From NCBI GenBank assembly GCA_000004695.1, contig CM000150.2, positions 4,416,001-4,480,000 on the forward strand: 64,000 nt of DNA, given 5' to 3'. Positions within the stretch are counted from its first letter, which is position 1; each line of letters starts with the position of its first letter. Below the pieces are notes generated by a model, which did no database searches, was not told where the DNA came from, and worked only from the letters and a program-made list of their open reading frames with translations. Both the position numbers and the translations under genes were made by a program. Origin of the DNA: Dictyostelium discoideum. Its lineage: Eukaryota. Shown here one piece after another: positions 59,600 to 63,049 of this stretch.

Positions 59600-62500
59600 T
59601 TACTGAGTGAAATTTTTAGATTTATTTTGTAATTCAATTGCTAATAATAAATCTTTTTTTGCTAGTGTTACTAATGATTGATATTGGAATTGATTAAAGA
59701 ATGAATCAATCTTTTCTTTTGATATATTTTTAGATTGTAATAATTTAATCATATGATTAATATGATAATGATATTTTAAAAAGTCTTTACCTGTCCATTT
59801 CATAATCATTTGATTCAATTTCTCATCATTTAAATCTGTACCTTCTTTCATATATTTTTGACATTCCAATGCTTCAATTAATCTTTCATCTTCAATTAAT
59901 GATTTATAAATATCATCTAATAATCCTTGTCCTGCATTATTTGTATTTATATTGTTATTATTATTATTATTAATATTTTTAATTTTAGTTGAATTACTAC
60001 TAATTGGTGTTAAAGTTGGGAAATCATTAAATGTTGAAGTAAAAGATGATGATGATGGTGGTGGTTGTGAAGGGAAATCTGTAAAATCACCAAAACTATC
60101 ATTATCATCTTTAGTTGCAATTGGTTTGATAGTTGTTGTTGTTGTATCTTTTGTTGCTGATGATGATGATGTTGGAAGTAAAATTTCATCAAATGAAAAA
60201 TCTGTTAGTGAACTTATTGGTTGTTGTTGTTGTTGTTTTGAAGCTAAAGTATTTAGTGAACTATTTTTAAAGGTTGATGATAATGATGATTTAGGATTTG
60301 CTGTTGAAGTTATTGCAGGTGCAATAATTGGTGGTAATTTTGATCTACTACCAGTTGGTGATGGTAGTATTATATTGTTACTATTATTATTATTAGTACT
60401 ATTATTACTACCATTACTATTCTTTCTAATTGGTAATGGTGAATTATTAGAAGATGGTGGTGAAATAAAAGTGGTTGAATTATTTAATGATGGAGGTTGA
60501 GTTGATGGTGTAATTGATCCGATAGAAGGTACTAATTCAATAGTATTAACTTGATTAATTGGTGGTGAAAATGTATCACTTTCAAACAATTCTATATTAT
60601 TACGACTACCTCCACTTACTACATTCGAAATACTACTACTATTATTGTTGTTGTTGTTATTATTAATTCCTCCAAAAACTTGTTTTGTTGCATCGTTAAA
60701 TTGCGTACTTAAATTCAATTCATTCTTTACAGAACCTGCATTTGGAGCTATAATATTACTATTGTTATTATTATTATTATTATTATTATTATTATTATTA
60801 TTATTATTATTATTATTATTATTATTATTATTATTATTATTATTATTATTATTATTATTATTATTATTGTCGGTTAATGTTGATGGGAATGGTGATGATG
60901 TATTAAAATCGCCAAAATCATCATCTGTTTTTGTTGTTGTTGTTGTTGTTGTTGTTGTTGTTGTTGTTGGGAAAGATGATGGTGAAGTATTAAAATCGCC
61001 AAAATCATCATCATTCTTTTGAGTTGTTGTTGCTGCTGTTGTTGGGAAAGATGATGTATTAAAATCATCATCATTCTTTTGAGTTGTTGCTGTTGCTGTT
61101 GTTGGGAAAGATGATGATGATGTATTAAAATCACCAAAATCATCGTCATCTGTTTTTGCTGTTGCTGTCGCTGTTGCTGTTGTTGTTGTTGTTGTGGTTG
61201 CTGGTAATTTATCAGAAGAACCAATTGGTAAATCAGTAGTGGTTGTTGATGTGGGTTTAATTATTTGTGGTGGTGGTGTTGATTCCATTGTTGGGGCAGA
61301 GAAGAAATCAACTTCTTTATTTACAGTGTCGAAAATGTTGCTATAGTTTCCACTTGACCAATCATATTTAGATTTAGTGTTTATTGGTGCAGTAGTTGAT
61401 GGTGGTGATTGAGTTTGTAAAACTTCAGGTTTAACAATACCTGCTAATCTTTTCGATTCTCTCATCATTTTTTCTAAATCAATTGGTGTGTCATCTTGTT
61501 GTGGTGCTGGTGTTGGTGCTGGTGTTGGTGTTGGTATTGGTGCTGGTGTTGGTGTTGGTGTTGGTGTTGTTTCATTAGTAATTGATGGTTGTTGTTGTTG
61601 ATGAATATTACTTTTATCAATTGAACCACCAGATAGTGATGCTGGTTGTTGGTTAGAAATTGAAGATTTACCAACACTTCCGGATGATGTTGTTGATTCA
61701 CTACTAAATGGTAATCCAAAATTAAAGTTATGCTGTGATTGTGGTTGTTGCTGTGGTTGCTGTAGTTGTGGTTGCTGCATTTGTTGAGATGCAGATGTAA
61801 AATCCTGTGAACCTGATTCAAAATCACCAAAATCATCATCATTACTATTACTAGTTGTATTAAACTGTGGTTGAGAAAATTGCATATTATTTTGAACCGC
61901 TGCTGCTGGGTAATTGAATCCCTGTTGCTGTGGTTGTTGAAGGTATTGCATATTATTTTGACCCACTGGGTAATTAAAACCTTGTTGTGGATGTTGTTGT
62001 GGATGTTGTTGTGGATGTTGTTGTGGATGTTGTTGTGGATGTTGTTGTGGATATTGTTGTTGAGGGTGTTGTGGATGTTGGTGTGGAAAGGGTTGGTTTT
62101 GTTGTCTTTGTTGATTTTGTTGTTGAAGCATTCCATCGAATGAATTAGGTTGTGGTTGTGGTTGTTGATTTTGTGGTAATGATGATGATGATTGGGGTGA
62201 GGAAGTATTTGGTGATATCACGTGATCATAATTATTTTTTTCAACACTCAAACTTGATTTCTCTTTTTCAACAGATAATGGTTTTATATCCTCTTCTATC
62301 ATATCCTTTAAGATATCATAATTTCTTTTACCACCTGGTAAAACAACTGGTGGATTATTACTAGTTGTTGGTTGTAATACTCCCTATTATATATTGATAT
62401 AGATAAATGAAATCGACACATTAGTCACCACTAACATTAAATAATATAAAAAAAAAAAAAAAGATAAAAAAAAAAAAAAAAAATTATATATAATTACATT

Positions 62501-63049
62501 TGAAAATTGGGGTTGTTGTGGTGATTGTTGTTGTTTTAATGCCAATTCTGGGAAATATTGTAATAATGGATTCTCTTTTTCCTTTGAAGCTTGTGGGGAT
62601 GGTTGTTGTTGTTGTTGATTTGGTGAAATGAATGAGCCAAATCCACCCATCATCATATTATTATTATTATTACCCATCATTTGTTGTGGATTGAAATTAC
62701 CACCCATTTGTTGGTTATACATCATTTGGTTATAAAAATTTGGATTTTGTTGTTGCATTTGTTGGTTATACATCATTTGGTTATAAAAATTTTGTCCACC
62801 CCCTCCCATCATCATATTATTATTATTATTATTATTACTATTATTACTACCCATTTGATTATAAAAATTTTGTCCACCCCCTCCCATCATATTATTATTA
62901 TTGTTATTATATCCATTTTGTTGTTGTTGTTGTTGTTGTTGTTGTTGTTGTTGTTGTTGTTGTTGTTGTTGTTGTTGTTGTTGTTGTTGTTGTTGTTGTT
63001 GTTGCATATACATATGGTATTGTTGTTGATTATTAAATTGGTTTTGCAT
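59600..63049 (-). CDS. Q/N-rich protein of about 1110 aa with six acidic DDDFGDF repeats that fit the gamma-ear/GAE-binding consensus, and a conserved-looking C-terminal domain. Exon 1 runs from about 62497 to 63049 and exon 2 is 59600..62383.
   Basis: ORF 62387..63049 has a poly-Q34 N-terminus and MGGGGQNFYNQM repeats. It ends ...PQFSN|GTAATT. The acceptor atataatag|GGAGTA gives GVLQPTTSNNPPVVLPGGKRNYDILKDMIEEDIKPL..., which runs in frame into ORF 59600..62302. The repeated units are T-rich linker plus DDDFGDF(N/E)TS. The C-terminal 120 aa (GLLDDIYKSLIEDERLIEALECQKYMKEG...LLAIELQ) are non-repetitive. Confidence 0.7.

Follow-up and report, generated by a model that had tools for sequence, protein, structure and literature searches.

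A predicted EH-less homologue of gamma-synergin with acidic FGDF motifs in Dictyostelium discoideum

A gene on the minus strand of a 64,000-nucleotide (nt) stretch of Dictyostelium discoideum DNA (GenBank assembly GCA_000004695.1, contig CM000150.2, positions 4,416,001 to 4,480,000; the window, in whose coordinates its features are given below) is predicted to encode a protein of 1333 amino acids (aa) with repeated acidic FGDF motifs. The gene spans 58835..63049, stop codon included, and is modelled with three exons and a coding sequence of 4002 nt. The best overall explanation is that the product is a homologue of gamma-synergin (SYNRG/AP1GBP1) which lacks an EH domain, carries motifs for the gamma-adaptin ear of AP-1 and ends in a SYNRG_C domain; we give this reading a probability of about 0.75. 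A previous sequence-only reading of the window had predicted a clathrin/AP-1 accessory protein. That prediction is now backed by homology new to it, in that a third exon, which had been missed, appears to encode SYNRG_C (PF25999).

The SYNRG_C-type domain occupies aa 1169-1333 (58838..59332; minus strand, as for all features of this gene), and an AlphaFold2 model shows it as a bundle of helices with a small beta-hairpin/helix module after it. An exhaustive phmmer search of 1.84 billion representative proteins, with the C-terminal 334 aa as query, returned exactly four matches, with E-values from 3.7e-6 to 5e-4, and 4/4 carry the precomputed Pfam assignment PF25999:SYNRG_C, the synergin-gamma C-terminal domain. 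A proxy hidden Markov model (HMM) was built from nine animal synergin C-termini, with Dictyostelium, P0001 and P0004 excluded. This animal-only HMM scored 53.9 bits on the Dictyostelium protein (E=1.4e-14 in a proteome-sized search), aligning to aa 1169-1332, while the best among 500 shuffled controls scored 10.3 bits. In a 12-sequence alignment that takes in Dictyostelium as well as vertebrate, arthropod and non-animal-like members, E1225, C1293, C1296, H1316, C1319, A1320 and N1321 are invariant. The signature C1293-x2-C1296...H1316-x2-C1319-A-N-F-W (58880..58960) forms a putative single zinc site. The protein has the invariant signature, the motif array and, by the proxy HMM, SYNRG_C, and of the family features it lacks the EH domain alone; we therefore class it as a divergent member of the synergin-gamma family without an EH domain.

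A further conserved region, the helical domain 'LIEDERLIEALEC...AKKDLLLAIELQ' at aa ~1003-1110 (59604..59929), is shared with P0001 and P0004, and the phmmer match to P0001 covers positions 8-117 of the 334-aa query; no counterpart was detected in the animal synergins retrieved. The 120-aa C-terminal domain of the sequence-only reading covers no more than the first third of a conserved stretch of ~330 aa at the C-terminus.

Scanned against Pfam, neither the full protein nor its C-terminus gave anything significant, a sub-threshold FecR_C match being the sole hit. This result is uninformative as to SYNRG_C because P0002, a member of PF25999 by precomputed assignment, gives no family even at E<=10 in the same scan, whose library apparently does not contain PF25999; for recently added families, the lack of a match in that scan is not equivalent to absence. 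Queried with the C-terminal 334 aa, a word-indexed homology search gave no match; with a five-sequence profile it found P0002 only, the method being insensitive for the SYNRG_C family.

The Dictyostelium domain is bridged to named synergins by the contig of P0003 (L003; Logan contig SRR8690377_1495). On its plus strand an EH-domain exon (5..664) is followed by a motif-plus-SYNRG_C exon (685..2079), an arrangement in which the gene caller has divided one invertebrate synergin gamma into two. The upstream exon, in which Pfam recognises EH (E=9e-7), has human synergin gamma 2MX7 as its best match in the PDB (E=2e-17, against 4e-3 for Eps15), and because of this match P0003 can be regarded as a genuine animal synergin gamma. 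When the EH exon and P0003 were joined as a query, proteins named 'synergin gamma' by NCBI were retrieved from Stegodyphus, Nymphon and Monomorium, together with hagfish and sturgeon proteins, and all of them carry PF25999.

P0001 and P0004 are metagenomic relatives that share the EH-less architecture. The open reading frame (ORF) of P0001 had been cut by the gene caller at an internal methionine; it extends over L002 8678..12229 on the plus strand and is open for 1183 aa, on a contig with a guanine-plus-cytosine (GC) content of 46%. In the extended ORF a Q-rich N-terminus is followed by RNYDIFRNL, then by an acidic EEEYFGGFETA and then by VDWS..SDIF, the order also seen in the Dictyostelium protein, where RNYDILKDM forms a conserved island at the start of exon 2 (62300..62326, aa 204-212) and YDWS..SNIF corresponds to VDWS..SDIF. 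Each of these short islands is not statistically significant alone; their collinearity suggests the same full-length architecture in both proteins, and the P0001 ORF has the look of a complete synergin relative of the EH-less, non-animal type, from some soil or environmental eukaryote. The EH domain may be an animal-specific addition, as P0001 and P0004 lack it too.

The acidic motifs lie upstream of the helical and SYNRG_C domains. FGDF cores, with both phenylalanines and the glycine of the G3BP-binding type, number five in the product against 0.0055 expected, and 0/20,000 composition-preserving shuffles reached five. The sequence-only reading had described six DDDFGDF(N/E)TS units, each preceded by a T-rich linker. 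The strong over-representation of acidic FGDF stands, but the sites comprise four exact DDDFGDF copies (aa 366-372, 597-603, 642-648 and 671-677), one near-match, DNDSFGDF-TDF (aa 943-954), and one truncated DDDF|NTS (aa 622-625) from which 'GDF' is gone. A T-rich linker precedes just the four sites within aa 592-686. Motif 1 (DDDFGDF, 61820..61840) is an isolated copy, as is motif 5, DDNDSFGDFTDF (60074..60109), which overlaps a second motif, DFTDF. The central tandem array (60880..61162, aa 592-686) has four units of T/A-rich linker plus motif and holds 4/6 of the motif sites: DDDDFGDF at 61150..61127, the truncated DDDF-NTS at 61072..61061, and DDDFGDF at 61012..60992 and again at 60925..60905.

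The array is a repeat at the level of the DNA, with a 60-nt period and 96% matches (Tandem Repeats Finder), so that its three exact copies and one decayed copy are recent duplicates rather than independent events. In a DNA alignment, unit B of the array (61013..61084, aa 618-641) lacks 9 nt (GGTGATTTT) flanked on both sides by a GATTTT hexamer, together with 6 nt of a TCA repeat, and DDDFGDFNTS has thereby become DDDFNTS. The 9-nt loss has the form of a typical slippage event and appears to offer a snapshot of motif gain and loss through replication slippage, with motif copy number in flux. Such features, in a gene full of other simple repeats (poly-N, poly-Q, QQHP), are what would be seen if the motifs were a by-product of microsatellite-like expansion with no binding function. 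We consider this very improbable. The two copies outside the array, at aa 366 and aa 948, are independent of it, their flanking sequences being unrelated; the motif recurs in distant homologues without a common linker sequence; and the chance expectation given above is far below the number observed. Moreover, avidity is commonly reached through just such expansion of a functional short linear motif.

The reading of the motifs as ligands of the gamma-adaptin ear is supported by their form. Mills et al. (2003) defined [D/E]FxD[F/W] as a ligand of the gamma-adaptin appendage on proteins that include gamma-synergin, which has three copies of it, one synergin peptide binding with a dissociation constant of 13 uM (PMC2172650). 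DFGDF is an exact fit to this consensus and also falls within the gamma-ear/GAE motif class psi-G-[PDE]-[psi/L/M]. It occurs four times in the Dictyostelium protein, each time after two or three further D residues, and the fifth core, SFGDF, is followed by DFTDF. Most of the animal synergin relatives retrieved have 2-4 [DE]Fx[DE]F motifs before SYNRG_C, many of them exactly [DE]FGDF; these include EEDDFGDF in the sturgeon protein, TDFGDF and NEFGDF in that of Nymphon, and ADDFGDF in P0009. The corresponding motifs are QFGEF in P0004 and EEYFGGF in the extended P0001 ORF, and the hagfish protein P0010 has 0 matches to the [DE]Fx[DE]F pattern. Motif and SYNRG_C co-occur across the synergin family. 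For the Dictyostelium protein an AP-1 accessory role is supported at the level of homology and motifs, and by analogy with animal gamma-synergin its motifs most likely bind the AP-1 gamma-ear. The GAE domain of GGA proteins, the other partner initially proposed, is an unlikely one because amoebozoan GGA/Tom1-type proteins have no GAE domain (PMC3473312); the likely receptor is then the AP-1 gamma appendage.

An unlikely alternative is that the repeats bind the alpha appendage of AP-2, or else the beta appendage common to the AP-1 and AP-2 of Dictyostelium, making the protein a multi-appendage hub or mainly an AP-2 ligand with a chiefly endocytic role. Each DDDF contains a DxF element, and Mills et al. 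reported weak binding of one epsinR peptide to the beta appendage as well as 'DDF motifs' in candidate partners (PMC2172650). Aftiphilin and gamma-synergin are cited in the interactomes of AP-2 and AP-3 (Marmorale et al., PMC10798858), and one beta adaptin is described as serving both AP-1 and AP-2 in Dictyostelium (Sosa 2012, as given in a citing paper). What is conserved in the family, however, is the full DFxDF consensus, which goes beyond DxF, and gamma-synergin was characterised as a partner of gamma-adaptin (Page 1999, as cited in PMC2172650).

The N-terminal part of the protein could be taken to point elsewhere again. Its ~1000 residues form an extended region that is biased in composition and probably disordered, and 27% of the residues of the whole protein are Q or N (N 197 + Q 164 of 1333). 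A Q/N-rich N-terminus had been noted before and is present, with GGGGQNFYNQM repeats and a poly-Q run of 29 residues. The term 'prion-like' holds for this composition, but it describes composition only. Richness in Q and N is generic, being commonplace among Dictyostelium proteins. The simple repeats in frame within the gene are typical Dictyostelium coding microsatellites: a poly-Gln run of 29 CAA codons (62918..63004), about eight QQHP units with a 12-nt period (61982..62087), a (TP)n/(AP)n repeat (61502..61569) and a poly-Asn run of ~38 codons (60754..60868).

Combined with FGDF, such an N-terminus brings to mind a stress-granule scaffold, in which FGDF would bind the NTF2-like domain of a Dictyostelium orthologue of G3BP and the Q/N-rich region, with its 27% of Q and N, would drive the formation of condensates. 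The five exact FGDF cores, several of them in tandem as in alphavirus nsP3, match the tetrapeptide of USP10 and nsP3, which is likewise present there in multiple copies. The flanking context and the protein family are different. Three or four acidic residues stand before the Dictyostelium motifs, as fits the acidic context of gamma-ear ligands, whereas those before FGDF in nsP3 and USP10 are hydrophobic. The Pfam scan revealed no RNA-binding or stress-granule domain, and the Q/N richness is, as said, generic. FGDF is an established G3BP-binding motif (PMC4450067), but in the synergin-gamma family, to which this protein appears to belong, it is documented as a ligand of the gamma appendage (PMC2172650). 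Nothing in the analysis came to favour the stress-granule-type scaffold that the sequence-only reading had left as its alternative, family and acidic context both pointing elsewhere, and we hold it to be highly unlikely.

The gene model divides the protein among three exons. Exon 1 (63049..62498, aa 1-184) encodes the Q/N-rich, low-complexity N-terminus with the poly-Q run and the GGGGQNFYNQM repeats. It is followed by intron 1 (62497..62384; 114 nt, GTAATT...AATAG, 14% GC), exon 2 (62383..59604), intron 2 (59603..59505; 99 nt, GTAAGT...AATAG, 8% GC) and exon 3 (59504..58835, including the stop codon), which gives a spliced length of 552 + 2780 + 670 = 4002 nt. The minus-strand ORFs 62387..63049 and 59600..62302, from which the first model had been built, are both present and fuse in frame when the 114-nt intron is removed. 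The length of about 1110 aa and the end at 59600 do not hold: the TAA at 59602..59600 is embedded in a perfect splice donor, CA|GTAAGT, and would be intronic. Intron 2 has a length divisible by three and contains two in-frame stops, and its AATAG acceptor opens onto ORF 58835..59539. In the window, introns and non-coding DNA have 8-14% GC against 22-30% for exons, a Dictyostelium-like composition. In P0001 and P0004 the helical domain of exon 2 and the domain of exon 3 lie within one chain, and the alignments span the exon 2/exon 3 junction. Both splice junctions are predictions, made from the splice signals, the continuity of the frame, the contrast in GC content and the single-chain homologues.

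The least probable of the alternatives considered, and by our estimate a very remote one, is that two genes are present, a 1111-aa product stopping at the TAA at 59600-59602 and a 234-aa ORF (58835..59539) translated independently. The downstream ORF does start with an ATG, at 59539. The gap between the two would, however, be 60 nt at 8% GC, too short for a promoter, and the TAA sits in a perfect donor, GTAAGT, followed after 99 nt by an in-frame acceptor, AATAG. MILFLYFFNKNR, which is encoded from the downstream ATG up to the acceptor, reads like a translated intron, and P0001 and P0004 have both domains in a single chain. The third exon corrects the earlier gene model.

AlphaFold2 gave a model of moderate quality for the SYNRG_C part alone, with a predicted local distance difference test score (pLDDT) of 69 and a predicted template modelling score of 0.67, and a poor one for the whole 334-aa C-terminus (pLDDT 51). 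The domain at aa 1003-1110 is modelled as helices at low confidence. The CxxC...HxxC residues are placed on a beta-hairpin and a short helix after the helical bundle, and the CxxC...HxxCANFW module probably binds zinc. When the SYNRG_C profile was compared with PDB sequences, a sub-significant match to a RING-H2 domain was obtained (EL5, 1iym, E=0.013), in which CxxC..H..C aligned with the site-1 ligands. The N-terminal domain of Vps28 was matched at E ~0.02-0.05, also sub-significant, with 'LSEIYSI' in common (aa 1212-1235). These resemblances may be due to chance, or may point to a half-RING zinc module on an ESCRT-I-like helical hairpin.

In the mechanism proposed for a gamma-synergin homologue of this kind, the two phenylalanines and the preceding acidic residues of each motif would dock on the basic groove of the AP-1 gamma-adaptin appendage. 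Several weak (micromolar) sites in one chain would then add up to avid recruitment to AP-1/clathrin-coated membranes, the candidates being those of the Golgi, the endosomes and the contractile vacuole. The helical domain, found in non-animal members only, and the SYNRG_C bundle with its CxxC...HxxCANFW module would form a structured effector or assembly end. The obvious candidate partner for this end is a complex of the HEATR5/aftiphilin type; human gamma-synergin travels with aftiphilin and HEATR5B (PMC10798858).

Several points weigh against this account as a whole. Membership of PF25999 is drawn from the proxy HMM and from transitive matches, not from a direct family hit. The scan of the full 1333 aa found no EH domain at E<=1, with a library which does detect the EH domain upstream of P0003. 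The motif copies under long-term selection may number just two or three, because three exact motifs and the truncated one stem from a very recent tandem duplication. Finally, AlphaFold2 gave no confident HEATR5B-synergin interface for the human proteins (PMC10798858), for which reason the HEATR5-type partner is speculative.

The closest known counterpart is animal synergin gamma (EH PF12763 + SYNRG_C PF25999). It shares with the Dictyostelium protein a C-terminal SYNRG_C domain with the CxxC...HxxCAN[FL]W signature and a long low-complexity region upstream with several acidic [DE]FxD[FW] motifs, often exactly DFGDF. It is a gamma-adaptin appendage ligand, a role which is predicted for the Dictyostelium protein. 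Unlike most of the animal synergins retrieved, the latter has no EH domain, and it adds the helical domain at aa 1003-1110 (shared with P0001 and P0004 only), linkers rich in T and an N-terminus rich in Q and N. Identity within the shared domain is no higher than ~22-24%. Aftiphilin, CLBA1 and yeast Laa2, which are cofactors of HEATR5, are likewise fast-evolving and largely disordered proteins in which acidic FxxPhi motifs link AP-1 to a structured partner (PMC10798858). They differ in that they bind HEATR5 through the HR1-3 helices, whereas the conserved domain here is SYNRG_C, and no Clathrin_bdg/aftiphilin-type domain was found by Pfam in the Dictyostelium protein. The gamma-ear/GAE ligands p56/CCDC91 and epsinR/CLINT1 use the same class of motif, DFGGF in p56 and DFxD[F/W] in epsinR, but the homology is limited to the motif, and neither an ENTH domain nor a coiled-coil domain of the p56 type is present here.

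Around the gene, an ORF at 63608..63964 on the minus strand, its upstream neighbour, matches Pfam Adenine_glyco at E=1.8e-31 over profile positions 75-175 of 177; it is the C-terminal portion of a methyladenine glycosylase, the 5' part of which must occupy an exon past the end of the window. The downstream neighbour, on the opposite strand (52084..56517, plus), is a 1477-aa ORF with abundant coiled-coil-like and poly-Q/poly-N sequence and no obvious relation to the synergin-like gene. ORFs on the plus strand across the region were set aside as low-complexity mirror frames (poly-V/L), and no tRNA genes were found in 56000-64000 of the window. Four alternative products of the gene had no exact-sequence match in a collection of 15 billion proteins.

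According to a recent paper, clear synergin homologues can be identified in animals only (PMC10798858), and literature searches on Dictyostelium or amoebozoan synergin found no paper describing one. Curated databases may already flag the Dictyostelium protein, because a Pfam family which recognises non-animal-like relatives exists. We see the result as a solid extension of a family already known, and not as a novel type of system. That an amoebozoan should have a recognisable protein of the synergin type would move the origin of this AP-1 accessory factor back in evolution, and would make the pairing of the motif with SYNRG_C, rather than the EH domain, the conserved core of the family. We see an even chance that the synergin family is older than the split between Amoebozoa and Opisthokonta, and that its ancestor was EH-less, with DFxDF motifs, a helical domain and a CCHC SYNRG_C, the EH domain being added in animals. 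If so, Dictyostelium would provide a haploid genetic system for probing the function of the SYNRG_C module, which might, for instance, dock a HEATR5-type complex as a half-RING-like unit that depends on zinc. The AP-1 phenotypes of Dictyostelium are well described, and the function of SYNRG_C would become testable in a genetically tractable organism.

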